Shown here: positions 42,282-60,690 of the stretch, one piece after another
How positions within the stretch are numbered: the stretch's first letter is position 1
How the letters are laid out: each line of letters starts with the position of its first letter
From: a virus
Lineage: Duplodnaviria > Heunggongvirae > Uroviricota > Caudoviricetes
Virus record (IMG/VR): IMGVR_UViG_3300044673_000278
Span: 187,694-251,693 of that record
Length of the DNA stretch: 64,000 nt
Reading direction: 5' to 3' (one strand)
Position numbers and translations under genes: made by a program
The notes under the pieces: model-generated
The model's database searches: none
Seen by the model: only the letters and a program-made list of their open reading frames with translations
Told to the model about the DNA's origin: nothing

Positions 42282-43409
42282 TTACAATTTTTTAACAGGC
42301 CACATTCCTGTGATGAATCCTGTAAAAGTAACATTGCCATCTATGGTATTGAAATACTTTTTGTCAACGACTTTTTGTAGATAGGCAAAATTGTCTCGTT
42401 GCAGACCTCGAAGTTTTTCTTCGTATCCAACTTTGAACAACAAAGTATCCAATCCAAAGTTCATGTCCTTGGGCTTTTCTACTTGAAAAAATCTCAAATC
42501 CAACTTGGGATAAATTATTGCTCTTGACGCAGTTTCGTAAAATTGTCTATGAGCTGGATTGCTGACCGGCCATTGGATGAATTGTTTGAATTGTGGCATG
42601 CTTTCAAAAAATTTAACCAGCAGGTGAGCTTGCTTGGCCAGGATCTTCCAGCTGTCTTTGCTCCAATAAAACAAATCAAATCCCACATTTTGTTTGTAAA
42701 ATGCAGAGCTAAACGTAGGACCGTTGGCAGTTAGTACATCTAAAAAATACAACCGATAGGCATTGTCGTTGATACACACCCTGGGTTTGTCTGTCCCAAA
42801 CACAACACCGACATTTTCACCGTTGTTGATTCGATCACGAATGGACGGAATCAGTTGCAAATCCCATTTGGCATTTGCATAGGGTGTAAAGTTGTGATTG
42901 CGATCGGCAATGAAGTCGTCAGCTAGCTTGATGCCGCTGATGGCCTCAACCCAATCGTACACAGTGATTTTTATGTTTGGGTGGTCGTTGGCTAGTTTCT
43001 GTAGTCTGGGCTTGATGTTAAAATCCCATTCCGAAAGGATATTGTTCCAACTAAAATTTGTGCTGTCAGGAACATAGGTGTTTCGTAGACTGTCTGCCCA
43101 GATTACAACAATCTCGTCGATTCGAATGTTGTTTTCTAAGCAAACGTCAAGAATGGTTTGACTGTCTGAGCCACCGCTGTACATCAGCACAAGGTAGTCG
43201 TACTTTTCTCTCAGTTGTTGAGCACGTTGTTTATACAGTTCGTAGATATCTTCGGCAGGTTCTTGTGTCCAGTCGATGTGATCAAAAAAATCATTGTTGA
43301 ATTTCCACTCAACATGAATGTTTTGTTTGGTTCCCTCCAGCAAGGCCGCAACCTTGCTGGTGAACACAGTATTGCCTACAGTATAATAACCTGTGTCGGT
43401 GTTGATCAC
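42282..43409 (-). CDS. PP-loop (SGGxDS) ATP-pyrophosphatase family protein, paralog 1
   Basis: LVLMYSGGSDSQTILDV PP-loop motif. 375 aa. A paralog lies at 50446-51606. Confidence 0.55.
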   Translation of the reverse strand: MINTDTGYYTVGNTVFTSKVAALLEGTKQNIHVEWKFNNDFFDHIDWTQEPAEDIYELYKQRAQQLREKYDYLVLMYSGGSDSQTILDVCLENNIRIDEIVVIWADSLRNTYVPDSTNFSWNNILSEWDFNIKPRLQKLANDHPNIKITVYDWVEAISGIKLADDFIADRNHNFTPYANAKWDLQLIPSIRDRINNGENVGVVFGTDKPRVCINDNAYRLYFLDVLTANGPTFSSAFYKQNVGFDLFYWSKDSWKILAKQAHLLVKFFESMPQFKQFIQWPVSNPAHRQFYETASRAIIYPKLDLRFFQVEKPKDMNFGLDTLLFKVGYEEKLRGLQRDNFAYLQKVVDKKYFNTIDGNVTFTGFITGMWPVKKL

Positions 43410-44314
43410 TGCCAGTACTTTCTGATAACAGTTCGTTGAGATTGAATGTTGTCTACAAGTTTTTGACCTGTCAACCCATCTGCACTGCTGACTGCATTGT
43501 CAGCAAAGGTTTGAAATTTTTCTTGACGGACAATAAACTCAATGCGTTTTGCTAGCAGTTCTTTAAACGCAGGATCAGCATTTTTAGGCACTGCAATACC
43601 AAACCAAGACTCAATGTTGGCTAGTTCTTTGCTGTTGAGTGCAAAATTTTGATACTGTTTGAGTCTGGAAGTTTTGCCAGTTGCAGTATAGCCAACAACT
43701 TTGAACTTGCCTTCTTCGGCTACACCAACGCCGCCGCCGGAGTCAAATGCCAGATCAAGAGTTCCGTCGATCAAGCTAGGATACATTTGAGGACCGTTTT
43801 TAAACATTACCACATTGGTATCCAAACCATAGGCCTTGGCAAGGTACTGTACTACAGTGCGGTTTGGCCCTTGAAACACACCAACGTTGATTGGTCTCTT
43901 TAGAGATTTAAGATATGAAACATATTCATCCAAGCTCTTGACTGCAGGAGTACGGTTAGGACCGTACCACACTGTGGGGAAATTTACCACTTTGACAACC
44001 ATTTCAAGATCGTCGCCGTGTGTTTTGGCATCAGGAAACAGATACTTGTTGTAAAGAATCATAGTGCCGCCAGCGCAGATAGCCTTGTTGGCAGCAGTGC
44101 TGTCTAGCATGTCTCGAGATGCAATTTCTCCTGATGCTCCTTGTTTTAAGTGCAACACAGAAGATGTTTGGAAATAAGTGTCATATGTGTTCCACAATGT
44201 GCGGCACACAGTTTCTAAGTTTCCTCCGGCAAAAGGCAACCATACATTGTTGATTTCTTTTGCGTGAGCAAAAATTGGCAGTGCCAATGCTAGGGATAAT
44301 AAAAATTTAGTCAT
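43406..44314 (-). CDS. Secreted periplasmic substrate-binding-protein-like protein (TctC/Bug-like?)
   Basis: Signal peptide MTKFLLSLALALPIFAHA. About 300 aa of alpha/beta SBP-like sequence including FDSGGGVGVAEEG. Confidence 0.4.
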   Translation of the reverse strand: MTKFLLSLALALPIFAHAKEINNVWLPFAGGNLETVCRTLWNTYDTYFQTSSVLHLKQGASGEIASRDMLDSTAANKAICAGGTMILYNKYLFPDAKTHGDDLEMVVKVVNFPTVWYGPNRTPAVKSLDEYVSYLKSLKRPINVGVFQGPNRTVVQYLAKAYGLDTNVVMFKNGPQMYPSLIDGTLDLAFDSGGGVGVAEEGKFKVVGYTATGKTSRLKQYQNFALNSKELANIESWFGIAVPKNADPAFKELLAKRIEFIVRQEKFQTFADNAVSSADGLTGQKLVDNIQSQRTVIRKYWQ

Positions 44315-44513
44315 AGAAATCCTTTCAAAGTAATTTTAACATTACAAGTAGTTGAAGTCAATGCTAGTGATAGAATATCACACACGGGATAGCGGCGTTC
44401 TGAGCATAACATGTCAGTAAAGGGGTTTCACTACCCCAGGCGTCACTGTTTTTGATACCGACGTCGGCCCCTGCCGGCGTTGCATTAGTATTTATTATAC
44501 TGATAATGCAATC

Positions 44514-44536
44514 AAAAAAATAGCCCTTGCGGGCTA
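44514..44536 (-). terminator. Rho-independent terminator (minus strand)
   Basis: Minus strand: TAGCCCGCAAGGGCTA hairpin followed by TTTTTTTGA. Confidence 0.6.
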
Positions 44537-44760
44537 TGAGTTACCGGTTACGTTTCCGGTGCCGCCCTATGGTGTCGGCCGTTCCACGATCACCCAACCG
44601 CTTCAACGTGTCTGCAGACCAGTGCAGTAGAGGTCAAGGCCGACTGCTACCTTTTATTAGTACCGGTTACGAATCCGGTGCAAGCATTTGGTTCTTGCCG
44701 CTCGACCCTTGGCCTTACTTTCACCCATCGCTACTTCAACATGCTTGCGCAGAGGTCAAG
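44537..44760. ncRNA. Two tandem ~110-nt structured RNA repeats (candidate riboswitch-like or sRNA elements)
   Basis: R1 spans 44537-44647 and R2 spans 44648-44760. Shared blocks are taccggttacgWWtccggtgc, tcacccaWcSctWcttcaacRtg and agaggtcaaggc. The closing stem covaries (GGCC/GGCC in R1, GCCTT/AAGGC in R2). Each repeat has a CCGG...CCGG hairpin. Confidence 0.5.
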
Positions 44761-44944
44761 GCGTGACGCCACCTTCTAACTGTTCAATTCGATCAGCAGC
44801 TTCTTCCAACAAGTCTGCAATGCGGTCTGGACGACCTTCTTGCACTGATTTGCGATCTCGAATCTGCCTACGAATCTCTGCTCGCTTACGCAGGCGAAAG
44901 ATTAGGCTCTGTTCGCTAACTGGCAAGTGACTTTCGTCTTTCAT
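44756..44944 (-). CDS. Hypothetical small basic protein
   Basis: 62 aa with an AAGGAG SD 5 nt upstream. Confidence 0.45.
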   Translation of the reverse strand: MKDESHLPVSEQSLIFRLRKRAEIRRQIRDRKSVQEGRPDRIADLLEEAADRIEQLEGGVTP

Positions 44945-44953
44945 GCCAACTCC

Positions 44954-45268
44954 TTAAAAGGGAATGTCATCATCCCAGAAGGATTCTACTTTTTTAGGCT
45001 TGGGTGCAACATAATCAGGATCGCCAAAGTTATTGAACACTTCCTGATAGTCGCCGCGCAGCCTGTCCTGATTGTCAGTAAGAATCTCTATCTTTTCAAG
45101 TTCAGTCCATGGGCGGTCCGGATGGTGGATTGTTACATATCCGTTTGTATATGTACCTTGCCACGCACCGTTTACTACCCAGAAGTCAAACTCTGTTGGT
45201 GATTTTTCTTGCTCAACATCAACTAGCAGACTAGGCTGATCTTTTGTACCTAACATTAATCTCATCAC
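44954..45268 (-). CDS. Hypothetical protein
   Basis: 104 aa. Confidence 0.5.
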   Translation of the reverse strand: MMRLMLGTKDQPSLLVDVEQEKSPTEFDFWVVNGAWQGTYTNGYVTIHHPDRPWTELEKIEILTDNQDRLRGDYQEVFNNFGDPDYVAPKPKKVESFWDDDIPF

Positions 45269-46203
45269 GCACCTACAAAGTTACGAACCCATGCCAGTCG
45301 AGCTTGCTCGTCCATGGCTGTATACTCCGCAATGTTAGCACGGATAGCATCCACCAAGGGATAGTATTCTTCGTCTAGATTGTGCTTGATGTCCCGGTTC
45401 AAGTCCACTAGCTTGTCTGTGCGTGGATTGCGGGCAACCCATTTTGAAGTCAAGTAGTAAGGTGATTTGATCTTGGCACTTACACCATCTTGAGTATAGA
45501 ATACATAACCTTCGTGCTTACAACCTTTGGCATCTTCTTTTAATTGTGCCATAGTCAAGAATCCTGCGGCTGGACTATAACAGTTAAAAGTGTTGGCCAA
45601 ATCTAGGATTACCCCTGGGCTGTGACCAACCTTGCTACGCCACGAGTTTTCACGATAGCCTAGTACATACATGCCTGGCTTTTCTGGTATGATGTGCGGA
45701 TCGTTTGGGTGAACACATTCGAACATCACAGTCATGCCACGCAAGTCGTCATTGGCAAAAGCCATTTGCCAATCAGCCCATGGAGCATGAGTTAGCATCA
45801 TTTCCTTGGCCATGGCAACATAGTCGCTGTCTGTGCTACCTGTAGTAGACACTAGAACATCTCCGTTATACCAAGTGCAAGCAACCATAAAGCCGTTGAC
45901 CTTACGGAATGCAATTACTTCAGTCTCGTCTGAGAGCACTGGTGCTTCTTTTTCGATACCGTAGTTATAAATCTTGGTAAAAGGATACGACACCAAGTTG
46001 AAGTCGGCATCTACAATAGACCCGCGACATTCAGCAATGTAGTCGTTCCACAGGTTATCGTAGAATACCTTCTTCTTGTATTTCAGCACATAGATACCTT
46101 CGCCGGCTGGCTTCATATTCACCAGCCCTGAAGTCTCTACATACCGCTTCAATTCTTCTTTAAACACTTTCAACTCCGAAATGCTGTTTGAACAAATTAG
46201 CAT
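45265..46203 (-). CDS. Putative ATP-dependent RNA ligase (nucleotidyltransferase superfamily, Rnl-like)
   Basis: Candidate motif I RKVNGFMV (Kx[D/N]G), motif IV EGYVFY and motif V DGVSAKIK. 312 aa, a size typical of phage RNA ligases. Confidence 0.45.
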   Translation of the reverse strand: MLICSNSISELKVFKEELKRYVETSGLVNMKPAGEGIYVLKYKKKVFYDNLWNDYIAECRGSIVDADFNLVSYPFTKIYNYGIEKEAPVLSDETEVIAFRKVNGFMVACTWYNGDVLVSTTGSTDSDYVAMAKEMMLTHAPWADWQMAFANDDLRGMTVMFECVHPNDPHIIPEKPGMYVLGYRENSWRSKVGHSPGVILDLANTFNCYSPAAGFLTMAQLKEDAKGCKHEGYVFYTQDGVSAKIKSPYYLTSKWVARNPRTDKLVDLNRDIKHNLDEEYYPLVDAIRANIAEYTAMDEQARLAWVRNFVGA

Positions 46204-46402
46204 CTGTTGAATCTTTAATCACAATGCTAAAGTTAAGTTTGTTTGATTCCGCTGAATAATAAAATTCACCAGAGCCATTTGTTCTAAGCCAATCTAACAC
46301 TTGGGATTGGTTAGGTTGACCCGGGGGCCAGGGTATAACAGTCCAGCCGCGTTCCTGCATCTTGGCAAAGGATGAACGATAATAGCGGCCGGTCTCTTTC
46401 AT
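46160..46402 (-). CDS. Hypothetical small protein
   Basis: 80 aa. Confidence 0.4.
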   Translation of the reverse strand: MKETGRYYRSSFAKMQERGWTVIPWPPGQPNQSQVLDWLRTNGSGEFYYSAESNKLNFSIVIKDSTDANLFKQHFGVESV

Positions 46403-46404
46403 TC

Positions 46405-46635
46405 TTAAACTCCGAAATGTTGTTTAATCAATACCTGTGCTGTGTCCATTGTTTGTGATGCCACAACACGATCAAGACCATCCAAACGATTCATTTCTGC
46501 TATCAATACATCGGCACATTCCCGAACAATCAACTCGGCGAACTTTTTATATTGAAAATCATCAAGATCGACTCGACCCCATGCATCAAGCCTTGCGCCA
46601 GATTGCATCATAAGTTCATCGATTCGTTGGTTCAT
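46405..46635 (-). CDS. Hypothetical small protein
   Basis: 76 aa. Confidence 0.4.
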   Translation of the reverse strand: MNQRIDELMMQSGARLDAWGRVDLDDFQYKKFAELIVRECADVLIAEMNRLDGLDRVVASQTMDTAQVLIKQHFGV

Positions 46636-47180
46636 TGTTCAACTCCTACATATCGGCTGGCCTCAGCATGAAGACCTCGGTCACCCTTGGTCATCACTGC
46701 AAGGAGAAGTCTCTTTTCTTCGAGATAAACTCGAGCAAACTCAGGATCGTGTTGCATGATGCTTCGGCTGTTGCTGATAAGGTCAGCGAGCTTGATCGTC
46801 TGAACTTCAGCAGGTGCTTGAGCAGTGTGCTCACGGTCGATACGCTTGCGAGTGGCTCTGTTGCCATCTTCGGGTCGACTCACATCTGTAAGCCAGTTGA
46901 CCATAGTAGCAATGTCGATACCGAATGCCATGTGTACGTCAGTAAACGTGCAACCAGTATCTTCGATCACATCGTGAAGCCAAGCAGCCGCAACCATGTC
47001 AGGGGTACTACCCGGAACGCTGGCAACAATGCTGGCAACTTCTGCTGGGTGAACGATGTAAGGCTCACCGGTATACTTGCGGACTTGCTTCACACTGGCG
47101 TGAGCAGCCATGGCATACACTTGCGCCTTGCGCACAACGTCCATACCGCCAAGTTCCATAGTAAATCCTTCCATGCTCAC
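46632..47180 (-). CDS. HD-domain metal-dependent phosphohydrolase
   Basis: H...HPAEVASIV...LHDVIEDT is the HD motif. 182 aa. Confidence 0.6.
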   Translation of the reverse strand: MSMEGFTMELGGMDVVRKAQVYAMAAHASVKQVRKYTGEPYIVHPAEVASIVASVPGSTPDMVAAAWLHDVIEDTGCTFTDVHMAFGIDIATMVNWLTDVSRPEDGNRATRKRIDREHTAQAPAEVQTIKLADLISNSRSIMQHDPEFARVYLEEKRLLLAVMTKGDRGLHAEASRYVGVEQ

Positions 47181-47198
47181 TCCTTATCCAACACATGT

Positions 47199-47227
47199 AT
47201 TATAACATTTTGGGAAATTCTGGGCAA
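47199..47227 (-). promoter_or_regulatory. Sigma70 promoter P4: TTGCCC-17-TATAAT
   Basis: Minus strand: ttgcccagaatttcccaaaatgtTATAAT. Nearly identical to P5. Confidence 0.65.
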
Positions 47228-47229
47228 CT

Positions 47230-47258
47230 AAAAAAGTAGTATTCAATCACTACTTTTA
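47230..47258 (-). terminator. Rho-independent terminator (minus strand)
   Basis: Minus strand: AAAGTAGTGATTGAATACTACTTT hairpin followed by TTTAG. Confidence 0.55.
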
Positions 47259-47636
47259 AAGGCCCAACAGTTCACGTTCTTCGTCGCTCAGCAGTTCACG
47301 AACCTTGCGTTCTGCTTCCTTCTTGACTTGATAGCGGCGTTCCAATTCGGCACGTTCTTCTTCGAGACGATCAACAGTGTAAGTCAAGTCTTCCAGTGCC
47401 GCTTGGCCACCTTCACTCCAAGCATAGGTCAGAAAATAGTCGCTACGATAACGATCGTTGCGGTCCTCGACGTTGAAACGCCCGTCTTTAACAGTCAACG
47501 TCAAAGTAGGTTCTGCGCTAACACGCTCTAGCAGGTTCATCAGTCGCAGTGGGTAAGCAGAGCGTTCTGCTTCCAGACGTTCTTCACGCTCGCGGGCTTC
47601 ACGTTCCAGACGCTCTGCTTTGGTTTCACGTGCCAT
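47256..47636 (-). CDS. Hypothetical charged coiled-coil protein
   Basis: 126 aa, Glu/Arg-rich. Confidence 0.45.
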   Translation of the reverse strand: MARETKAERLEREAREREERLEAERSAYPLRLMNLLERVSAEPTLTLTVKDGRFNVEDRNDRYRSDYFLTYAWSEGGQAALEDLTYTVDRLEEERAELERRYQVKKEAERKVRELLSDEERELLGL

Positions 47637-47666
47637 TTTGGGCTCCTTGTTTCTTACTATGCTCTA

Positions 47667-47695
47667 ATTATAGCATTTTGGGAAATTCTGGGCAA
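47667..47695 (-). promoter_or_regulatory. Sigma70 promoter P5: TTGCCC-17-TATAAT
   Basis: Minus strand: ttgcccagaatttcccaaaatgcTATAAT. Confidence 0.65.
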
Positions 47696-47697
47696 CC

Positions 47698-47723
47698 AAA
47701 ATTTTGTAATACTCAAGTATTAC
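47698..47723 (-). terminator. Rho-independent terminator (minus strand)
   Basis: Palindromic hairpin GTAATACTTGAGTATTAC followed by AAAATTTTGG. Confidence 0.5.
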
Positions 47724-47724
47724 A

Positions 47725-48267
47725 TTAGTGATGCGCCCGAATTGCACCCTTTAGCGCATCTGCAATCATAGCATCAAAGTCGCTGACCACACGGCCTGTG
47801 GCGTCAAACGCAACGTCACGAGCGCGATACCCCTCCATGCCTGTTTTACCACCGTGAACGTGTCCATAAAAATGCACAGCGCCACGATGCATTTGATCCC
47901 ACTCCCAAATAGGGTAGTGCATCATAATGACCAAGGTACCGTTGTGGTTATAACGCAGGTACTGATGTGTTTCACGTAAGCAGGCTCGGAACTCAGGGTC
48001 TTGCAACAGCTTGCGATCGTGGTTGCCCTCGATCAAGATCTTGGCACCGTTGAGTCGATGCATGATGTTTGCTGCCTTGGGTGCAGGCAAGAATGCCACG
48101 TCGCCTAGGATAAACACTTCGTCCTCGGGTGCAACACTTCGGTTCCATTCTTCAATCATGCACTCGTTCATATGGTCCACATCACGGAACCCTGCACGGG
48201 TCACAGGACAGAACTTCATGATGTTGGCGTGACCAAAGTGCAAGTCACTGGTGATCCACTTTTTCAT
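47725..48267 (-). CDS. Calcineurin-like metallophosphoesterase
   Basis: Motifs TSDLHFGH, ILGDV and GNHD. Start set to MKKW (ATG at 48267) overlapping the upstream stop. Confidence 0.65.
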   Translation of the reverse strand: MKKWITSDLHFGHANIMKFCPVTRAGFRDVDHMNECMIEEWNRSVAPEDEVFILGDVAFLPAPKAANIMHRLNGAKILIEGNHDRKLLQDPEFRACLRETHQYLRYNHNGTLVIMMHYPIWEWDQMHRGAVHFYGHVHGGKTGMEGYRARDVAFDATGRVVSDFDAMIADALKGAIRAHH

Positions 48268-48728
48268 TATACTCTCCAAATTTCTGCAAAACCTTCTTCC
48301 AAGGTTGGCATTTCAAAACTGTAAATCATAGACTTGATCACAGCATCAGGAATGTTCTTGCCTGGGCGACTGGCAAGTCGACGAGCAAGCTCTGCACCGT
48401 CGGGCGTGGCAAATACCACAGCAATATGCTCATAGTCGGGCAGCATGGCAAACTTTTTGCGTCGAGACTTGATGTTGACTGAAGTTTGATCCCAGATCAC
48501 ATCCAGGCCGTTCTCCCTACAATGCACAACATGATCAGCCATGAGTTTCACAGCAGTTGGCATGTATTCGTCAAACACTTCTGAGTAGGTTCGACCTTGC
48601 TGGGCAGCATAGGTCTCAACGTGCGCATCAGTGCTGACAACGTTCAAGCCCAGAGCCCAGGTTTGATTACGTATCCAGGTACTTTTGCCCGATCCGGGCA
48701 CTCCGATCAATTGATAACAGCGAGGCAT
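48267..48728 (-). CDS. P-loop polynucleotide-kinase-like kinase (T4 Pnk kinase-domain-like)
   Basis: CYQLIGVPGSGKSTWIRNQ matches the T4 Pnk N-terminal Walker A region (GCPGSGKSTWA). About 153 aa. Start taken as MPRCYQ. Confidence 0.55.
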   Translation of the reverse strand: MPRCYQLIGVPGSGKSTWIRNQTWALGLNVVSTDAHVETYAAQQGRTYSEVFDEYMPTAVKLMADHVVHCRENGLDVIWDQTSVNIKSRRKKFAMLPDYEHIAVVFATPDGAELARRLASRPGKNIPDAVIKSMIYSFEMPTLEEGFAEIWRV

Positions 48729-53643: not shown

Positions 53644-53720
53644 TGGTGCCCCCAGCGGGACTCGAACCCGCAAAATTCTGATTTTGAGTCAGACACGTAT
53701 ACCAATTCCATCACAGGGGC
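53644..53720 (-). tRNA. tRNA with anticodon CAA (Leu-type anticodon) but class-I architecture
   Basis: Acceptor GCCCCTG/TGGGGGC, A73, CCA encoded. Anticodon stem TCTGA/TCAGA with loop CTCAAAA. Variable arm only ATTTT. T-arm GCGGG-TTCGAGT-CCCGC. Confidence 0.5.
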
Positions 53721-53777
53721 ATTGGTTATTCAAGTATATATTATACTTGAAGTCTGGTTTGTTGTAAACCAGGTTCT

Positions 53778-53855
53778 TGGTCGGTGTAGCAAGATTCGAA
53801 CTTGCGACCCCTTGCACCCCATGCAAGTGCGCTACCCAGGCTGCGCTATACACCG
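53778..53855 (-). tRNA. tRNA-Pro (GGG)
   Basis: Anticodon stem CTTGC/GCAAG with loop ATGGGGT. T-loop TTCGAAT. CCA encoded. Confidence 0.6.
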
Positions 53856-53936
53856 TAATTGGCACGCCCTTCGGGAATCGAACCTTCGACTCTGTGGTTT
53901 TGGACACCCAGAGATCAGCCAGAGTGAGCGCATGAT
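53856..53936 (-). pseudogene. tRNA-like remnant (Trp-like anticodon loop UCCAAAA; no acceptor stem)
   Basis: Contains GGTTCGATTCC and GTCCAAAACC, but the acceptor and T stems do not pair. Confidence 0.3.
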
Positions 53937-54012
<76 letters not shown>

Positions 54013-54467
54013 ATTATATTCGTTCGCGCTTGACGCGACCTATGCGACTGGCTTTGTTCCAGTCATATGCAACACCGTCTGGGCAAACACCATCACGAAT
54101 GCTGTCTACTCCAAACATACCTACAATTTCAAAACCATCGCCTGAGATGGTAACAAAACGATTCAACAACTTGGCATGAGCCATTGCTAGATCCAGTCCA
54201 GCAAACGATGTTTCTACACCGTCACATTCAACTATAAACAATTTTTTCTCTTTTCTCTACAACAACAATAAAATGCAAACAACCGGTTTCGCTAGGGCGT
54301 GTGGCTGAGGACTATCGACCAGGGTTTGGCGCTCCGGCTCCCACAATGGATAATCTTTGACACCGGCAACAGTCAGGAACCTCTCATTCCTGCAACTTTC
54401 CGTCAGATGCGCATCACTGCGCAGAGCCATCCGGGGTATTACCCCTACACGTTTTTTGTTTGCAAAC

Positions 54468-54544
54468 TGGTGCCCTGGGCGGGACTCGAACCCGCAGCGC
54501 CACGGACCTCAACCGTGTGTGTTTGCCAATTTCACCACCTGGGC
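54468..54544 (-). tRNA. tRNA with anticodon GAG (Leu-type) but class-I architecture
   Basis: Anticodon stem CACGG/CCGTG with loop TTGAGGT. A73. Variable arm GCGCT. One A-A mismatch in the acceptor stem. Confidence 0.45.
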
Positions 54545-54555
54545 ATAGATCTTGG

Positions 54556-54631
54556 TGCGTGATGAGAGATTCGAACTCCCGACATCCAACGAGTCAAATT
54601 GGCACTCTACCAACTGAGTTAATCACGCAGA
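54556..54631 (-). tRNA. tRNA-Val (GAC), tentative
   Basis: Acceptor GCGTGAT/ATCACGC. Anticodon loop TTGACTC with a pyrimidine at position 37. T-loop TTCGAAT. Confidence 0.5.
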
Positions 54632-54680
54632 TTGCTGATTACTTGTCCTATTATACGCCATCAGCAAAGGCGAAGCTTGG

Positions 54681-54755
54681 TGTCCCTGGTAGGAATCGAA
54701 CCTGCATCTACTCTTTAGGAGAGAGTTGTTCTATCCATTGAACTACAGGGACTGA
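54681..54755 (-). tRNA. tRNA-Arg (CCT)
   Basis: Acceptor GTCCCTG/CAGGGAC. Anticodon loop CTCCTAA. Confidence 0.6.
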
Positions 54756-54760
54756 GATGG

Positions 54761-54836
54761 TGCCGCCTCCCGGGATCGAACCAGGTTCCAAGGATTTTCA
54801 GTCCTCCGCAATGACCACATTTGCTAAAGCGGCATT
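54761..54836 (-). tRNA. tRNA-Phe (GAA)
   Basis: Anticodon loop CTGAAAA. T-loop TTCGATC. Confidence 0.6.
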
Positions 54837-54838
54837 AT

Positions 54839-55001
54839 TTCTTTGGTGCAGGAACTTTCTTCAGCAGTTCACGTTTGATCAAACAATCACGTTGAGTGCC
54901 TTCGCGAAATACTCGCAAGTATTCCACACCGTCTATGCGTTGCACATCCTGAAGATTTGTGCAATAAAAACGTTCACGGTTTCGCATGTTTTCAAAATAC
55001 A
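54839..55001 (-). CDS. Small hypothetical protein (53 aa), not in the ORF track
   Basis: AAGGAG SD 7 nt upstream of the ATG at 55001. Protein: MKTVYFENMRNRERFYCTNLQDVQRIDGVEYLRVFREGTQRDCLIKRELLKKVPAPKK. Confidence 0.45.
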
Positions 55002-55037
55002 CTGTTTTCATAGATGTGCTCCTTGTTGAATTTGAGT

Positions 55038-55190
55038 AAATGCTTGTAGGATTCGAACCTACCCCTGCGTCCGCCTTCTCCGCTTACTCAGTCTGCAAAC
55101 CTTTAATCGGATACTACCTTCTGCTGTGCTAGCCAGTACACCTAACAACCTGTCCGAGTTCATTGCAGTGCCCTCGGAGCAGTCTCAAAA
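55038..55190 (-). ncRNA. Conserved ~150-nt structured element, copy A, ending in a tRNA-like T-arm
   Basis: Shares long conserved blocks (CACTGCAATG, TAGCACAGCAGAAGGTAGTA, GTTTGCAGACTgAGTAAGCGGaGAAGGCGGACGCAGGG, TTCGAATCC) with copy B at 56745-56900. Confidence 0.45.
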
Positions 55191-55193
55191 CTT

Positions 55194-55541
55194 TTACCAG
55201 TAGTAGAGATGTGGCTTGCGACCCACGCTGGGCACGTCAGCATCCACAAGATCTTCTACTCGATATTTTACAATTTGTCTCTCCCACTCTCGGCCACGAG
55301 TACGTTGTGGCTGATTCATAAACTCACGCACCCACCACATGGGAGTGGGCATGCCGTGATATTCTTGGTAGTGACGTTTTTTCTTGGTCTTTACTCCGGG
55401 CTTCTGAATGTAGCACCAGAAGTTATACCAGTACTGAAACTCAGTGCTCCACTTCTGATATGGAACTCGTTCCATACCATAATCCCAGCGAGACTCGGGA
55501 TATCTGAGTTCCCAAGGTTGATCTTTATACGATCGTGACAT
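55194..55541 (-). CDS. Hypothetical Trp/Tyr-rich protein
   Basis: 115 aa. Confidence 0.5.
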   Translation of the reverse strand: MSRSYKDQPWELRYPESRWDYGMERVPYQKWSTEFQYWYNFWCYIQKPGVKTKKKRHYQEYHGMPTPMWWVREFMNQPQRTRGREWERQIVKYRVEDLVDADVPSVGRKPHLYYW

Positions 55542-55597
55542 AGTTTTCTCCTTAGTATCACAATCGCATAATCATCTCCTTGTAAAAAATTATTTAG

Positions 55598-55689
55598 TGG
55601 TGGAAGCGGTGAGATTCGAACTCACGGGACCTGTTAAGGACCGACGGTTTTCAAGACCGTTGCAATAAACCGGGCTCTGCCACGCTTCC
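55598..55689 (-). tRNA. tRNA-Ser (TGA), class II
   Basis: Acceptor GGAAGCG/CGCTTCC. Anticodon loop CTTGAAA. Long variable arm. Confidence 0.65.
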
Positions 55690-55696
55690 GTTGTCT

Positions 55697-55774
55697 TGGA
55701 GTCTCGGGTAGGATTCAAACCTACGAATCAAACGCTTTGCAGGCGCAGCCATTAAATCACTCTGGTACCGAGAC
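55697..55774 (-). tRNA. tRNA-Cys (GCA)
   Basis: Anticodon loop CTGCAAA. U73 discriminator. Confidence 0.55.
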
Positions 55775-55781
55775 ATGAAAT

Positions 55782-55858
55782 TGGTCGGAGTACAAGGATT
55801 CGAACCTTGGACCTCTTGCTCCCAAAGCAAGCGCACTACCAGGCTGTGCTACACTCCG
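55782..55858 (-). tRNA. tRNA-Pro (TGG)
   Basis: Anticodon stem CTTGC/GCAAG with loop TTTGGGA. Confidence 0.6.
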
Positions 55859-55865
55859 AATAAAC

Positions 55866-55940
55866 TGGTACCTGGACACGGTTTCGAACCGCGGACCCTC
55901 TCCGTGTAAAGGAGACGCTCTACCCCTGAGCTATCCAGGC
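55866..55940 (-). tRNA. tRNA-Val (TAC)
   Basis: Anticodon loop TTTACAC. T-loop TTCGAAA. Confidence 0.6.
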
Positions 55941-55946
55941 AATGTT

Positions 55947-56020
55947 TGGAGCGGCGTGCGAGAATCGAACTCGCGACTTTAGCTTGGAAGGCTAAGGTAA
56001 TACCATTTTACGAACGCCGC
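55947..56020 (-). tRNA. tRNA-Gly (TCC)
   Basis: Anticodon loop CTTCCAA. U73. Confidence 0.6.
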
Positions 56021-56218
56021 TTAAATACACTATGCAACAACGTGACTTCTATGCTGCCAACGGTTGGGTGCAAATACACCTCTGCGTCAACGACACAGCA
56101 GACACCTGCTACATCTACGTCAATGATATTTACAATCAAAAACTGACCATGCGTTTTTTCACGGACACCACGGAAGCGATGTTGTGGATCAACAGCATAG
56201 ACACATTGTGAATATCAC

Positions 56219-56295
56219 TGGTGCCGCCACATGGATTTGAACCATGGACCCCCGCCTTATCAAGACGGTGCTCTAACCAACTGAGCTATGGAGGC
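56219..56295 (-). tRNA. tRNA-Ile (GAT)
   Basis: Anticodon loop TTGATAA. T-loop TTCAAAT. Confidence 0.6.
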
Positions 56296-56436
56296 AAATT
56301 TTTTCAACTACTTTTTAAAGAACAAACTGCATTGTAACAGCAATATCTTTGTTTGTCAACTGGCCGGTCCTGCAGGAATCGAACCCACATCGCCAAGTTC
56401 GAAGCATGGCATTCTATCCGTTGAAATAAAGGCCCT

Positions 56437-56511
56437 TGGTGGTTGTAGTTGGTATCGATCCAACCTCCTGGGCTTATGAAGCCCGTGCGCATCCGTCTAC
56501 GCCATACAACC
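56437..56511 (-). tRNA. tRNA-Met or Ile2 (CAT)
   Basis: Anticodon loop TTCATAA. T-loop variant ATCGATA. Confidence 0.55.
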
Positions 56512-56521
56512 AAAACTTCTT

Positions 56522-56596
56522 TGGGGTGACCACTGGGAATCGAACCCAGACTAAGAGAATCACAATCTCTGTTGCTAACCGTTACAACATGGCCAC
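56522..56596 (-). tRNA. tRNA-His (GTG)
   Basis: Anticodon loop TTGTGAT. C73. Confidence 0.6.
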
Positions 56597-56744
56597 ACCA
56601 AAGAAGTTTACCATATAAAAACACTCCCAATATCGGTTCAATGCTGGCACAAAGAACCTTTCGCCTCTGCCAGGAGACCGAAGAGATCGCCCGCTTCAAT
56701 TGCGGGATCTGTCCGTCACGAATGTTTTTATATGGTGACAAACA

Positions 56745-56900
56745 AATGCCTTGGGATTCGAACCCAACCCTGCGTCCGCCTTCGCCGCTTACTAAGTCTG
56801 CAAACTTTTCGTCGGGTACTACCTTCTGCTGTGCTACCAACACACCATGCAGCCTGTCACAAGCCATTGCAGTGTCTTGTGAGCAGTCTTGTACCATATA
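56745..56900 (-). ncRNA. Conserved ~150-nt structured element, copy B, ending in a tRNA-like T-arm
   Basis: Homologous to copy A. T-arm TTGGG-TTCGAAT-CCCAA. Confidence 0.45.
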
Positions 56901-57186
56901 GAAACACACTAACGAACCTGGCTGTGGGGTTCGACCCCACTGTTTCCCGTAGCACCAGCGGTACTGCTACGATACCGGTTAATGTGTTTGCATATGGCGG
57001 TACATGAGTTAACCTAAAACTAGTCTAATATCGCGGCCGCAATATTTCGTCTATGTCTTAGGATATACACGTTGGTACCTTGCGTACCTCACGTACCATA
57101 TGTAAACACACTAAAGCTCTCTTATCTGCATCACTAGACATTTTGTCGTAGCGTCGGTCATTGTACCCGATTAATGTGTTTGCATA

Positions 57187-57260
57187 TGGTAGGGGTGTTC
57201 GGGAACGATCCGAATTTTACCGGTTAAAAGCCGGTTACTTCACCTTAAAGTTTCACCCCC
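57187..57260 (-). tRNA. tRNA-Lys (TTT)
   Basis: Acceptor GGGGGTG/CACCCCT. Anticodon loop CTTTTAA. T-loop variant ATCGTTC. Confidence 0.55.
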
Positions 57261-57263
57261 ATA

Positions 57264-57338
57264 TGGTCCACAGCCTGAGAATCGAACTCAGTTAATCCGG
57301 GTAAGAGCCGGGTACTTCGCCAGCAAAGTTTGCTGTGG
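57264..57338 (-). tRNA. tRNA-Lys (CTT)
   Basis: Acceptor CCACAGC/GCTGTGG. Anticodon loop CTCTTAC. T-loop TTCGATT. Confidence 0.55.
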
Positions 57339-57424
57339 ATGGATTTCGTATTAAATTATCTTTAACGAGCCATCCATGTTACCATACGGGGTTACAGAAT
57401 GGCTCTACATTTTAGCAGTTCGCT

Positions 57425-58186
57425 TCATATAGTTCCTTGTTTAATTCTTCCTCTAACCCAACCGATAGGTATACTATCAGTAGAGTTTTGTCTTTTGTTA
57501 CTAACTCCGTCGTTAATCCAAATTGTGCCACGATTATTGCCATAATTTAGATTTGCTTTGTCTTCGCTAGTTCGTTTTGATACAGTTTCTTTGTATGCCT
57601 GTATCCTTCTTTCTTTATCACCAAACCCGACACCTTTATATAAAGCAGACATTTTAGCAGATTGTTTTTCTTTCCTGCTGTTAAGTTCTTCTTCAGGCTT
57701 GTTGATCCAAGAATTGCATTTTTGTTTGTAGACTTCCTTTTCCTCGGGCGTTTTGTTGGCCCACGGATTAGAGTGTTTTCTGTGTTGCTCCTTCTTCTCT
57801 TCAGGCAACGTTTTCCAATATTCTTTTTTAGAGTTTTTATAATCTTCTCTTAACTGGACAAATTCATCAACAGTTAATTGGCGACGGTCTACTCTGTTGG
57901 TAGTCATTAAATGAAACGCACATGACATTTGCTGATTACCATATGCTTTCCACAATAGGTAATGTGCTTCGTAATGTTGGGCGGTAGTCAAGTGTACCAC
58001 ATTTGATTTTTCATTTGAGCCTCCCATACTACGTGGCAAAATATGATGTAGTTCGGTTTTTAAGTTGCTGTCACTAACGGCACTCGCTATTAGCGTCATA
58101 TACAAATCTAAAAACTCTTGATTTTTCGGTGTAGGTAATAAGTCTTTCATATACTTATTTAGTCCACACGCACTATTCTGCACCAT
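57425..58186 (-). CDS. HNH homing-endonuclease-like protein
   Basis: HHILPRSMGGSNEKSNVVHLTTAQHYEAH is an HNH motif. 253 aa, inside the tRNA array. Confidence 0.6.
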   Translation of the reverse strand: MVQNSACGLNKYMKDLLPTPKNQEFLDLYMTLIASAVSDSNLKTELHHILPRSMGGSNEKSNVVHLTTAQHYEAHYLLWKAYGNQQMSCAFHLMTTNRVDRRQLTVDEFVQLREDYKNSKKEYWKTLPEEKKEQHRKHSNPWANKTPEEKEVYKQKCNSWINKPEEELNSRKEKQSAKMSALYKGVGFGDKERRIQAYKETVSKRTSEDKANLNYGNNRGTIWINDGVSNKRQNSTDSIPIGWVRGRIKQGTI

Positions 58187-58256
58187 ACGGGGGTCTAGGA
58201 TGACACTATGGTTTGCCTGAGCGTTTCATAGTGTTACCTCTTTTGTTTAAGTTCTA

Positions 58257-58285
58257 ATTATACAACAATTGCAGAATGTTGTCAA
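58257..58285 (-). promoter_or_regulatory. Consensus sigma70 promoter P7: TTGACA-17-TATAAT
   Basis: Minus strand: ttgacaacattctgcaattgttgTATAAT. Upstream of the HNH gene. Confidence 0.7.
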
Positions 58286-58294
58286 CTGTTTTTT

Positions 58295-58372
58295 TGGTGC
58301 GTCCCGAGGAATTCGAATCCCCAACCTCACGGCTTCGTAGGCCGGTGTTCTATCCAGTTGAACTAGAGACGC
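58295..58372 (-). tRNA. tRNA-Arg (ACG)
   Basis: Acceptor GCGTCTC/GGGACGC. Anticodon loop CTACGAA. Confidence 0.6.
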
Positions 58373-58377
58373 GGTGT

Positions 58378-58457
58378 TTGGCCCTTGAGGTCACTGTCGA
58401 AGGTGACGTTACCTACCATTGGCTAGGGTGTGCACGGCCCCGCTTAACTCAAGGATA
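58378..58457 (-). pseudogene. tRNA-like element with a paired acceptor stem (CCTTGAG/CTCAAGG) but an aberrant 8-nt T-loop and body
   Basis: rc: CCTTGAG...GTCAC-CTTCGACA-GTGAC-CTCAAGG-G-CCA. Confidence 0.3.
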
Positions 58458-58460
58458 TGT

Positions 58461-58536
58461 TGGTGCTGCCTCCAGGTTACGATCCTGGTTCCTCGGATTT
58501 TCAGTCCGTCGCTATGACCACATCAGCTAAAGCAGC
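58461..58536 (-). tRNA. tRNA-Phe (GAA), second diverged copy
   Basis: Anticodon loop CTGAAAA. T-loop variant ATCGTAA. About 80% identical to the 54761 copy. Confidence 0.55.
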
Positions 58537-59117
58537 ATTATTTCTTGATATTCTTCTTTTTCAACTACCGCAATATTTTTATCAGGGTAAGTTTGAAGAA
58601 CTATCTTCATTTTTTCTTTATCATCACCCCACCAAAAACCTTTTACTTCAACATACATATCGTAGTCAGGAAGATAAAAGTCAGGAGTGTACGAACGAAT
58701 TTTTCCGTTCATCTCATACTTTAATGTATCTTTGTTTGTTTTGAGCTTAATCCATTGTATATTCAGCTGTTCGAACTTAGCAGCAATATCGCGCTCCCAA
58801 GTACCTTGAACTTTTTGGCCAGCAATTTCGTACCACTTGGCACGACCGCCTTTATTGTTAATAGAAAGCTTTTCACTAATTTTACGTTTAGACTCAGCGG
58901 AATGCTTTTTTCCAGCAAAGGTGCCAGGCAGTCCTTTGTTCCAAGCAGTTGGTAACTCAGATCCTTGCTTTTTTGCAAGTATATACTGATTGCTACCTTG
59001 TTTTCCGGTCATGCCGTTTTTGTAAACCCTGTTTAGATTGCTAGGGCAACATCGCTGATGATTACGTAGAGAGTTTTCGCTTTTACACTCTTTTTGACAA
59101 AATTTACAAATAAACAT
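58527..59117 (-). CDS. PD-(D/E)xK nuclease-like homing endonuclease with an N-terminal Zn finger
   Basis: CKFCQKEC...CC zinc finger. YTPDFYLPDYDMYVEVKG is a PD...(D/E)xK motif. AGGAGA SD. Confidence 0.55.
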   Translation of the reverse strand: MFICKFCQKECKSENSLRNHQRCCPSNLNRVYKNGMTGKQGSNQYILAKKQGSELPTAWNKGLPGTFAGKKHSAESKRKISEKLSINNKGGRAKWYEIAGQKVQGTWERDIAAKFEQLNIQWIKLKTNKDTLKYEMNGKIRSYTPDFYLPDYDMYVEVKGFWWGDDKEKMKIVLQTYPDKNIAVVEKEEYQEIMLL

Positions 59118-59182
59118 ATTATCTCCTATGTTTATTTAGCCCAGTCTGCTGCTCTACCTGATGAGCTACCGCGGCGTTGAAT

Positions 59183-59260
59183 TGGTCTCCATGGTACGAT
59201 TCGAACGTACAGCCTCCTGACTCCAGATCAGGCCGTCTACCAGATTGACATTACACAGAG
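59183..59260 (-). tRNA. tRNA with an atypical anticodon loop UCUGGAG (UGG-like, C33)
   Basis: Good acceptor (CTCTGTG/CATGGAG) and T-arm (GTACG-TTCGAAT-CGTAC). The anticodon loop lacks U33. Confidence 0.4.
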
Positions 59261-59269
59261 ATTAGAAGT

Positions 59270-59346
59270 TGGTCTTTGTAGCAGGGTTCGAACCTGCGAC
59301 CCCTAGTCCCCCAGACTAGTGCGCTACCTGGCTGCGCTATACAAAG
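59270..59346 (-). tRNA. tRNA-Pro (GGG), second copy
   Basis: Anticodon loop CTGGGGG. Paralogous to the 53778 copy. Confidence 0.55.
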
Positions 59347-59397
59347 ATAAAAAAGCCCAGGGACAGTCATCACGTCAGGAGTGGGTATAGGCTTGAG

Positions 59398-59471
59398 TGG
59401 TGCTCTTACCAGGTATCGATCCTGGGTTTCTACATTACCAATGTAGTGTAATGCCTTTATACTATAAGAGC
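59398..59471 (-). tRNA. tRNA-Thr (GGT)
   Basis: Anticodon loop TTGGTAA. T-loop variant ATCGATA. Confidence 0.55.
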
Positions 59472-59517
59472 GATTTGGAGCGGGAGTAGACTTACAAAAT
59501 GTAAAAGTTACCTTCAT

Positions 59518-59934
59518 TTAGTAACTCTTTCCTTCTGCGTACCTTTGCCGTCTAGTATGTCTGCCGTTGCCTTTGTTCCTATTTTTATAGGTACTTGTTT
59601 GACTATGACAGTTGGGGCAAATTAAACACAAATTTTCTTTACTATTGTTTTCGCTATTGCCATCTTTATGCTCTAGCTCTAATACAATTTCTTTGTCGTT
59701 CCAAGTTTCGATATCACATACTGAGCATTTGTTGCCATAGTTTTCAGCAAGGTATCTTTTTAATCTTGCCTTGCCGGGAGATTTGTTCTCCCAGTTTGCG
59801 ATAGCATCTCTATAGTTCTGCTCTTGCTGACACGCAATTGAACAAAACAAGTTATTTTTAGATAACCTAAATCCTGATTCTTTATTACATACTGTACAAT
59901 TATATGTGTACGGATGAATTTTTGGCTTTCCCAT
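59518..59934 (-). CDS. HNH endonuclease
   Basis: ELEHKDGNSENNSKENLCLICPNCH is an HNH motif, preceded by a CxxC zinc finger. 138 aa. Confidence 0.6.
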   Translation of the reverse strand: MGKPKIHPYTYNCTVCNKESGFRLSKNNLFCSIACQQEQNYRDAIANWENKSPGKARLKRYLAENYGNKCSVCDIETWNDKEIVLELEHKDGNSENNSKENLCLICPNCHSQTSTYKNRNKGNGRHTRRQRYAEGKSY

Positions 59935-59978
59935 TGGTATAGCACTCCTTACATTTATTTATGCTATATCAATAAAAA

Positions 59979-60054
59979 TGGTGCCCTTTGAGAGATTTGA
60001 ACTCCCGACCTCCCGCTTACAAGGCGGATGCACTAGCCACTGTGCTAAAAGGGC
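59979..60054 (-). tRNA. tRNA-Thr (TGT)
   Basis: Anticodon loop CTTGTAA. T-loop TTCAAAT. Confidence 0.6.
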
Positions 60055-60059
60055 AAATT

Positions 60060-60135
60060 TGGAGCGGGTAAGGGGATTCGAACCCCTGACATTCACGTTG
60101 GCAACGTGATGCTCTACCAACTGAGCTACACCCGC
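60060..60135 (-). tRNA. tRNA-Gly (GCC)
   Basis: Anticodon loop TTGCCAA. U73. Confidence 0.6.
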
Positions 60136-60142
60136 AATATTT

Positions 60143-60217
60143 TGGCTCCCCAGCGTGGGCTCGAACCACGGACCAACGGATTAACAGTCCGCTACTCTAC
60201 CACTGAGCTACAAGGGA
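60143..60217 (-). tRNA. tRNA-Asn (GTT)
   Basis: U1-A72 and G73. Anticodon loop CTGTTAA. Confidence 0.6.
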
Positions 60218-60223
60218 ATATTC

Positions 60224-60313
60224 TGGCGGTGCGACTGAGACTCGAACTCAGAAACCGGCTTTCACCGATCGACGGATTAGCAATCCGCTCCAATACCATT
60301 ATGGGACCGCACC
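60224..60313 (-). tRNA. tRNA-Ser (GCT), class II
   Basis: Anticodon loop TTGCTAA. Long variable arm. G73. Confidence 0.6.
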
Positions 60314-60359
60314 ATGAACTTTTTACTTATAGACGGCACTGTGGCCACCTACAAAAACT

Positions 60360-60438
60360 TGGCTCCGTATCTGGGAATCGAACCCAGCTAATCATTGATT
60401 AACAGTCAAGCCCATGCACCATGCTTGGATTCTACGGA
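60360..60438 (-). tRNA. tRNA-Asn (GTT), second copy with an enlarged D-loop
   Basis: Anticodon loop CTGTTAA. G73. One acceptor mismatch. Confidence 0.45.
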
Positions 60439-60446
60439 ATAAAAAT

Positions 60447-60521
60447 TGGTTGCCACGGACAATTTCGAAATGTCGACCTATCGCTTATCAAGCGAGTGCT
60501 CTTCCTCTGAGCTACGCGGCA
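60447..60521 (-). tRNA. tRNA-Ile (GAT), second copy
   Basis: Anticodon loop TTGATAA. T-loop TTCGAAA. Confidence 0.5.
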
Positions 60522-60524
60522 ATC

Positions 60525-60598
60525 TGGCACGGGTACTAGGGCTCGAACCTAGAACGACAGAGTCAAAGTCTGTGGTGTTACCATTACACTATACCCGA
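60525..60598 (-). tRNA. tRNA-Gln (TTG)
   Basis: Unpaired U1-U72 and G73. Anticodon loop CTTTGAC. Confidence 0.55.
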
Positions 60599-60607
60599 AC
60601 AAAAACT

Positions 60608-60681
60608 TGGCGTACCCACTAGGACTCGAACCTAGACTGACGGTTTTGGAGACCGCGATGCTGCCATTACACTATGGATAC
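60608..60681 (-). tRNA. tRNA-Trp (CCA)
   Basis: Anticodon stem CGGT/ACCG with loop CTCCAAA. G73. Confidence 0.6.
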
Positions 60682-60690
60682 ATTAACATA

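Follow-up and report, generated by a model that had tools for sequence, protein, structure and literature searches.

On the minus strand of the window, by which we mean the whole 64,000-nucleotide stretch of Caudoviricetes DNA analysed here (IMG/VR record IMGVR_UViG_3300044673_000278, positions 187,694 to 251,693), two adjacent copies of a structured RNA element lie between positions 44537 and 44776. It is well supported that this element is a new family of pseudoknotted RNA, located at the 3' end of an RNA-repair-type cluster's transcript, shortly before an intrinsic terminator. The fold is backed by covariation, includes two pseudoknots, lies outside Rfam 15 and recurs in uncultured lake phages, where its core is very common. 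As a whole explanation of its function, we favour a 3'-end RNA module that is recognised by a trans-acting factor, to which we give a probability of about 0.4.

The two copies, as delimited by their matches to a covariance model (CM), are the following:

44656-44776, minus strand: copy A, long subtype with an extra hairpin (CM match 125.9 bits, E 2.5e-33)
44537-44654, minus strand: copy B, short subtype with a longer P2 helix and without the extra hairpin (CM match 79.1 bits, E 4.5e-20)

Copy B begins 1 nucleotide (nt) past the modelled end of copy A. The two adjacent repeats of about 120 nt that an earlier note on this DNA had described are real: a repeat search found three in-register blocks spaced 119, 122 and 133 nt apart, the copies align at 77% mean column identity in a pairwise alignment, and a 20-nt block (CACCGGANNCGTAACCGGTA) occurs exactly twice in the window, with zero occurrences expected. 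The note located both copies, but its end at 44760 was too short, since the element reaches 16 nt further, to 44776, by the covariance model. Tandem Repeats Finder reported nothing on the copies because they differ by hairpin-sized indels.

Homologues were sought by pattern scans of IMG/VR, an nhmmer screen and then covariance model R1, which together yielded 10 further distinct full-length copies; variants of a 62-amino-acid (aa) protein, encoded by the open reading frame (ORF) that overlaps copy A, yielded another 8. These 18 copies and the window's own two form the set of 20 distinct sequences from 19 loci (L numbers below) on which the fold was analysed; an earlier set comprised 12 sequences. 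The homologues come from uncultured phage and metagenome contigs of freshwater and lake phages.

In the CM alignment of the 20 sequences, the consensus fold pairs 94.0% of 501 cells, compared with 29-38% when the 3' partners are slid by 1-3 columns. Compensatory double changes occur in 12 pairs, and none of 500 shuffles attained the observed covariation score; on 12 sequences the fold pairs 95.7% of cells. The structured RNA with true covariation put forward in the earlier note is therefore borne out, but not by the closing stem that the note had cited as compensatory, GGCC/GGCC in one copy and GCCUU/AAGGC in the other. These strands occupy different alignment columns and join non-homologous positions in the two copies, and so do not represent a compensatory change. 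The GCCUU of copy A is the 3' strand of P1, whose partner is the AAGGU at the 5' end, and the GGCC/GGCC of copy B links the loop and 3' strand of P1 to the 5' strand of P4.

The long RNA measures about 105-125 nt and has five helices, P1 to P5. P1 is a hairpin, AAGGU-N8-GCCUU, whose fifth pair is U.G, U-A or C-G. P3 has 3 base pairs (bp) and encloses P2; its middle pair is A-U, G-C or C-G and its inner pair C-G, U-A or U.G. P2 is a small variable hairpin, UGC-N4-GCA in most copies and 4-5 bp long in copy B, L559, L305 and L295. The long subtype has an optional further hairpin (GGCC/GGUC, GGCG/CGUC or GGCGC/GCGUC). P4 and P5 are adjacent hairpins. P4 comprises 5 bp, an extra covarying pair (A-U/C-G, columns 100-107, the exception in an otherwise noisy all-against-all column screen for tertiary pairs) and a hexaloop ACCANA, and P5 comprises 5 bp, with double changes in four pairs, and a loop A-N-N-CGUAA that always ends in CGUAA. 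Pseudoknot PK1 forms between the P1 loop and the first four nt of a bridging strand of 7 nt (GACG-GGU). Under hand-placed registers 46 of the 48 PK1 cells are paired, versus 10-28 when slid, and three of its four pairs show double changes in the 20-sequence set; the pairing is CGUN:GACG in most copies, UGUU:AACA in L569 and L572 (C-G to U-A) and CACC:GGUG in L559. The remaining GGU of this strand and the ACC of the P4 hexaloop probably form PK2, so that a single 7-nt strand would bridge both loops. Because GGU:ACC is invariant and hence beyond a covariation test, we infer PK2 from two other observations: L295 and L567 retain GGGU but have GGC in P1 in place of the rival partner GGU, and a short module without the 5' domain, described below, has a different P4 loop. 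The parts of the two copies are placed as follows:

44775-44770 / 44763-44758, minus strand: copy A, P1 (pair counts)
44757-44755 / 44740-44738, minus strand: copy A, P3 (pair counts)
44751-44749 / 44744-44742, minus strand: copy A, P2 (pair counts)
44729-44723, minus strand: copy A, bridging strand GAUGGGU
44768-44765 with 44729-44726, minus strand: copy A, PK1 (PK1 table)
44714-44704, minus strand: copy A, extra hairpin
44698-44680, minus strand: copy A, P4, with loop ACC at 44692-44690
44679-44662, minus strand: copy A, P5, with loop AUUCGUAA
44653-44649 / 44640-44636, minus strand: copy B, P1
44635-44633 / 44607-44605, minus strand: copy B, P3
44627-44612, minus strand: copy B, P2
44598-44592, minus strand: copy B, bridging strand GUUGGGU
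44646-44643 with 44598-44595, minus strand: copy B, PK1
44579-44561, minus strand: copy B, P4, with loop ACC at 44573-44571
44560-44543, minus strand: copy B, P5, with loop AAACGUAA

The functional strand is minus, since the G.U pairs and the compensatory changes fit one strand only: with 30 G.U cells, the sense (minus) strand is 95.7% paired and its complement 86.3%, and a plus-strand reading is ruled out by these counts. The orientation that the earlier note had offered as its alternative, on the minus strand 3' of the gene at 44756-44944 and before the terminator, is the correct one, and both that ORF and the terminator are as the note stated. Its conserved blocks are indeed conserved but were given on the reverse strand, the true blocks being GnUGGGUGA, GUUGAAG and CCUUGACCUCU, of which the noted ones are the reverse complements.

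The final six codons and the UGA stop of the 62-aa ORF lie within P1 and the start of P3 of copy A, with the stop in the conserved CCUUGACCUCU block. The RNA pairings persist although the ORF's C-terminal five residues are hypervariable, and in L570 and L571 the stop is lost and the ORF extends 14 codons into the element; the variable ORF end and the lost stop in L570 indicate that the constraint is on the RNA over the protein.

All homologues stand at the 3' end of the RNA-repair-type gene cluster, in two genomic settings. The element follows either the 62-aa ORF, with the stop just 3' of P1, or a metallophosphoesterase ORF of about 200 aa, with a UAA just 5' of P1; both settings are the 3' end of one syntenic region, which continues with a 58-aa ORF and a MoxR-like AAA ATPase or with a convergent 388-aa gene. 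Every copy begins no more than about 20 nt from the stop codon of one of these ORFs, and for most of the first 12 copies the flanks show a terminator-like hairpin with a U-run no more than about 40 nt further on. In the window, the transcript bearing both copies is ended by a terminator directly 3' of copy B, which L143 and the element-free locus L162 share:

44513-44537, minus strand: intrinsic terminator AUAGCCC-GCAA-GGGCUAU followed by U7, stem 44537-44520 (terminator scan)

Both the long form and the short module lie on the strand of the upstream ORF, start at its stop codon and usually end at an intrinsic terminator, as an RNA borne in a 3' untranslated region (UTR) does.

The long element and the short module match nothing in Rfam 15, and we rate them as a new RNA family. 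Searching the whole window with cmscan and all 4227 Rfam 15 models gave no match in 44537-44776 at the gathering score, nor did a search of 44250-45000 at E<=10 with lax filters give one over the same positions; the short module has no Rfam match either. The likeness to glnA RNA (RF01739) or Downstream-peptide RNA (RF01704) suggested in the earlier note consequently finds no support, there being no covariance-model match at the gathering score or at E<=10. The blocks behind that likeness, UCACCC and GAAGUAG, lie on opposite strands here, and the location speaks against it as well, because the element is 3' of the 62-aa or phosphoesterase ORF and not in the 5' leader of a nitrogen gene. No Rfam model of a known self-cleaving ribozyme (hammerhead, twister, twister-sister, pistol, hatchet, hairpin or HDV-like) matched at E<=10. 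ARAGORN found no tRNA or tmRNA gene in 43000-46000, and the 31 Rfam tRNA matches in the window all fall at 53.6-61.9 kb on the minus strand. A 2023 survey of candidate structured RNAs in viruses from IMG/VR reports 10,006 candidates (PMC10690425); the element may be one of the unnamed candidates of that survey.

The 3' half of the element also occurs by itself. Weak matches of CM R1 in L303 and L304, 3.7 kb from the full copies, consist of P4 and P5 alone, directly past a stop codon, and a scan of IMG/VR for the P5 sequence CTGGAAYTCGTAACCAG matched at least 120 stretches, with about 93 real, distinct short-module loci among the matches listed:

L303 2960-3005: short module (CM R1 or P5 pattern scan, as for the following)
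L304 9586-9630, minus strand: short module
L379 and L390: short module
L438-L557: short module

This module of about 45 nt consists of AAAYCG, P4 with the loop AA(C)GAUWGA, 1-3 nt, P5 (GCUGG-AAYUCGUAA-CCAGC), 2-10 nt and a terminator. Its P4 stems covary widely (CCAC/GUGG, CCGC/GCGG, GGUAC/GUAUC, GAUGU/ACAUC and others) while the loops are conserved. It lies between a stop codon and a terminator, the latter nearly always present in the loci listed, at a stop-to-P5 distance of about 27 nt in most loci. The upstream genes mostly encode pstS-like binding proteins of phosphate uptake, but also porin-like proteins and several other families; the upstream proteins of about 470 aa are judged porin-like from their C-terminal ...F. 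The module is not linked to repair genes. It is homologous to P4 and P5 of the long element and autonomous, and occurs in the same phage group. Kissing between its P4 and P5 loops (ACGA:UCGU) was considered and rejected, because it is not conserved and many loops are without the C. A likeness of AUAAACCG, which precedes the module's P4, to the CRISPR type I-E 5' handle was also dismissed, since its 'spacer' portion forms base pairs and position 6 is variable.

In uncultured lake phages the short core is abundant, the long form rare. The 62-aa ORF occurs at thousands of loci, most of them without the element, and neither the long element nor the short form was found in 50,697 isolate phage genomes. 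A scan of a genome collection, which is a weak test of bacterial genomes, gave 17 matches, about the number expected by chance, with a best CM score of 20 bits. Our first viral pattern returned mostly chance matches, an overly loose pattern applied to metagenomes returned loci with nhmmer scores no better than chance, and 79 loci with a related phosphoesterase gene held merely short-module or weak matches.

From the fold, the autonomous core and the constant position, we propose that the element acts as an RNA at the 3' end of the transcript. Loops that stay invariant while their stems covary imply sequence-specific recognition, and the P4-P5 loops would be the site recognised in trans by a protein or by an RNA that pairs with them. 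The compact fold and the terminator could leave a nuclease-resistant 3' fragment, which would protect the upstream mRNA or persist as a stable 3'-UTR-derived RNA. The 5' domain of the long form may occupy the P4 loop in cis. The tandem in the window joined two subtypes, doubling the module and not creating a cooperative riboswitch. Several points weigh against this proposal, the functional half of which draws on position and conservation. A search in cis for complements to the P4 or P5 loops, the short module's included, found none, and the single-sequence folding energy of most copies is no better than that of shuffles. At two loci, L094 and L295, no terminator separates the element from the next ORF. 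Two pseudoknots and about 35 conserved unpaired nt exceed the needs of a decay barrier or of a typical base-pairing small RNA (sRNA), and such complexity is more typical of aptamers or ribozymes.

Four other readings compete with a trans-recognised 3'-end module, in descending weight a termination-control site resembling nut or put, a self-cleaving RNA, a riboswitch and a decoy. A core that binds RNA polymerase or a travelling phage factor, and so alters the terminator by antitermination or enhanced termination, is the strongest of these, although we regard it as unlikely. A small ORF, a structured RNA and a terminator a few nt on reproduce the cro-nutR-tR1 geometry of phage lambda; the short module stands 2-10 nt before a terminator in most of the roughly 93 loci, among the at least 120 matches listed, its two hairpins lie 1-3 nt apart and have invariant loops, and the 62-aa ORF has an arginine-rich helix. 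However, read-through would be pointless where the next gene is convergent (L093, L128, L559 and L572), inspection revealed no boxA or boxB consensus, promoter-like sequence is often found 3' of the terminator, and the 62-aa ORF is present at thousands of loci that lack the element. An RNA that matures the operon transcript's 3' end by self-cleavage or other catalysis is a more doubtful candidate. The element's size, its pair of pseudoknots and its numerous conserved junction nt are typical of small ribozymes, and it is phage-borne and single or, in the window, tandem. Self-cleavage yields 5'-OH and 2',3'-cyclic phosphate ends, the substrates of the neighbouring kinase, phosphoesterase and Rnl1 ligase. 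Against this stand the lack of a match to any Rfam 15 ribozyme at E<=10 and of an assignable cleavage site, and the short P4-P5 module, which bears most of the conserved nt yet is too simple for a ribozyme and unlinked to repair genes. More improbable is the specific version in which self-cleavage is coupled to the cluster, with the kinase, phosphoesterase and Rnl1-type ligase healing and sealing the ends and two tandem cuts freeing a unit of about 120 nt that could be circularised; if true, this would be a phage-encoded ribozyme/ligase system making circular or re-ligated small RNA.

A ligand-sensing riboswitch or conformational switch, including the tandem glutamine riboswitch of the earlier note, has low odds, ranking just behind a catalytic RNA in general. 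The conserved complex fold and the terminator directly after the element in the window would suit it, as would an alternative helix, mutually exclusive with P1, PK1 and P4, in the short subtype. In L143 (3169-3275), the 5' region GGUGACGGCCG is perfectly complementary to CGGCCGUCACC, which covers the junction, the 5' strand of P4 and the loop ACC; the helix has 11 bp there and 7+3 bp in copy B, and is the minimum-free-energy fold in these two alone (z = -3.9 in L143). Over 12 homologues the copy-B helix is 67.9% paired, with slid controls at 11-41% and the consensus fold at 94-96%, and it breaks precisely where P1 has compensatory U-A or C-G pairs, so that it may be a conformer of one subtype at most or a by-product of the palindromic GGCCGGCC. 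The riboswitch-like character proposed in the note fits poorly with an element that matches neither RF01739, RF01704 nor any other riboswitch model and lies 3' of ORFs instead of in a 5' leader, with downstream genes that vary (TctC-like, PP-loop, dioxygenase-like, acetyltransferase-like or AAA ATPase) or are convergent. An invariant P5 cannot form a conserved antiterminator with terminators whose sequences differ between loci, and the tandem arrangement, to which the note had pointed, is no trait of the family and occurs only in this window, at one of the 19 loci.

We consider it very improbable that the RNA is a decoy, shielding a host RNA target during infection, for instance by mimicking an anticodon loop or the 16S decoding site so as to titrate a defence nuclease and complement the RNA-repair genes. 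The P5 loop, (N)U-CGU-AA, has the layout of an anticodon loop, the phage has about 30 tRNAs besides its RNA-repair genes, and GGGUGAA, UCGUAAC and CACCAU are identical to positions 1487-1493, 1495-1501 and 1409-1414 of Escherichia coli 16S rRNA (rrsH, L558), in which the inferred GGU:ACC pairing corresponds to pairs of helix 44. However, local alignment of 12 elements to E. coli 16S is no better than for shuffles, the same blocks match unrelated 16S sites, the invariant blocks' adjacency has, by a rough post-hoc estimate, a p of about 0.05, neither ARAGORN nor the tRNA model of Rfam finds anything at the element, and U33 is missing in copy B and L143. Helix 44 mimicry, with alignment scores equal to those of shuffles, was retained only as a low-probability lead. 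GACGGGUGA equals 16S positions 107-115. We give next to no credence to a reading in which the repeat is not an RNA but a protein-coding repeat or a DNA site (an origin, a recombination site or an attC-like site), for which a plus-strand ORF of 79 aa spanning both copies and the position right past stop codons, like that of integron attC sites, could be cited. The block spacings of 119, 122 and 133 nt reflect indels that are not multiples of three, the compensatory changes and the 30 G.U pairs fit only one strand as RNA, and a comparison of empty and filled sites reveals no terminal inverted repeats or target duplications.

Further candidates were rejected. Protein coding fails on the indels and on the frame past the UGA, which closes early in L093 and L128. 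Stop-codon read-through or a selenocysteine insertion sequence (SECIS) was excluded on the same frame, which is open through copy A and closes after 3 codons in L093 and 13 in L128; the stop of the 62-aa ORF is UAA in L560 and lost in L570, and there is no conserved extension. An RNA antitoxin of a type III toxin-antitoxin system is at odds with 18 of the 19 loci being single-copy and with the TctC-like binding protein downstream in the window. A diversity-generating retroelement was discarded because there is no reverse transcriptase and, by inspection, the differences between copies are not adenine-specific. An integron attC-like site or an inverted-repeat transposable element does not fit, as the strand is the wrong one and neither inverted ends nor a target duplication were seen.

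The copies in the window belong to two diverged subtypes, copy B grouping with L143, L563 and L559 and copy A with L093, L128 and L567. The tandem is therefore a junction of two lineages, and a fresh duplication was rejected. The nearest relative of copy B is the single copy of L143, at the identical site before the same terminator. L162 represents the empty site, with the ORF, terminator and downstream sequence of L143 and the window but without the element. In L565 (1430-1500) and L566 (860-925), a relic with an internal deletion, made up of a P1-like start and a degenerate P5-like hairpin (CCGGG-AACGCA-CCCGG), precedes the same terminator, indicating that the element can decay in place.

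The genes surrounding the tandem pair in the ORF list are on the minus strand as well and encode, in downstream order, a P-loop kinase, a metallophosphoesterase, an HD_4 hydrolase, two small ORFs, an Rnl1-type RNA ligase, a 104-aa ORF and the 62-aa ORF; past the pair lies the TctC-like binding protein gene. Three of them are placed as follows:

46632-47180, minus strand: HD_4 hydrolase (domain/family match)
45265-46203, minus strand: Rnl1-type RNA ligase (PF09511, phrog_562)
44756-44944, minus strand: 62-aa ORF with an arginine-rich, helical N-terminal half (ORF list)

The 62-aa product has no Pfam or PHROG match and about 8000 homologues, every one labelled 'hypothetical'. The RNA-repair-type cluster (window 45265-48700, approximately, minus strand) is kept across phages, also in L093-L172 and L559-L572, with the P-loop kinase, metallophosphoesterase, HD_4 hydrolase, Rnl1-type ligase and arginine-rich helical 62-aa protein as its members. 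Similarity of the element's stretch to isolate phages is weak and confined to coding parts (Limnohabitans phage DC31 and Acidovorax phage ACP17). Elsewhere in the window, a cluster of about 30 tRNA genes (53647-61888, minus strand) adjoins a GOLLD RNA (RF02032; 61488-61950, minus strand, 198.9 bits) with an embedded tRNA at 61817-61888.

On the other side of the terminator, U-tracts run directly into TTGAC-like boxes in the window (44485-44512, minus strand), L143, L162, L300, L304 and many short-module loci. In the window and L143 this box is merely 10 nt from a TATAAT-like hexamer (TTGAYTGCA..N..TATAAT), the wrong spacing for a sigma-70 promoter, and the pair represents an activator-type phage promoter or else belongs to the AUAAAUA block of a second conserved non-coding sequence. 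This second motif (window 44395-44492, minus strand; also L143, L162, L303, L561 and L570) reads AUAAAUA-N5-GCAACGCCGG..CCGACGUCGG, followed by GACGCC and a hairpin and then GAACGCC, with three ACGCC boxes each beside a hairpin. It lies directly 3' of the element's P5 in L303, L561 and L570 and 3' of the terminator in the window, L143 and L162, upstream of varied auxiliary genes (TctC-like, PP-loop, dioxygenase-like and acetyltransferase-like). It has no Rfam match at E<=10 and may be a leader RNA.

Should the core serve for recognition by a factor of the phage or the host, phages would have in it a new means of controlling transcript 3' ends, acting on stability, termination or the generation of small RNAs. 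If the long form is catalytic or a decoy tied to the repair enzymes, it would link a new RNA class to phage counter-defence.

Among known systems, the 3'-UTR-derived sRNAs of enterobacteria, such as CpxQ and SroC, start at or past the stop codon and share the intrinsic terminator of their mRNA. The element resembles them in both respects and in having one or two hairpins and conserved unpaired nt upstream of the terminator. However, the two pseudoknots of the long form amount to far more structure, and there is no sequence relationship. The repetitive extragenic palindromic (REP)-type 3' stem-loops that stabilise mRNAs are hairpins directly after the stop of highly expressed genes, much as the short module directly follows the stops of pstS-like and porin-like genes. 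Unlike these, the module has invariant loops and covarying stems, and occurs in one or two copies per contig stretch examined instead of being dispersed.

Lambda nutR and HK022 put are cis-acting antitermination RNAs, with which the element shares the succession of small gene, structured RNA and terminator, and the short module shares with put its two adjacent hairpins. It differs in lacking a boxA or boxB consensus, in standing at the ends of transcription units and not near promoters, and in the convergent downstream gene at several loci. The resemblance to glnA and Downstream-peptide RNAs, which are also small, pseudoknotted and able to occur in tandem, extends to a superficial UCACCC/GAAGUAG likeness, whereas the strand of the blocks, the covariance models, the absence of a nitrogen-metabolism context and the 3' rather than 5' position set the element apart. 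GOLLD RNA is likewise a covariation-supported orphan RNA of uncultured lake phages. In contrast to GOLLD, which exceeds 400 nt and resides among tRNAs, the element measures about 115 nt, matches no model and is fixed at the 3' end of a gene.

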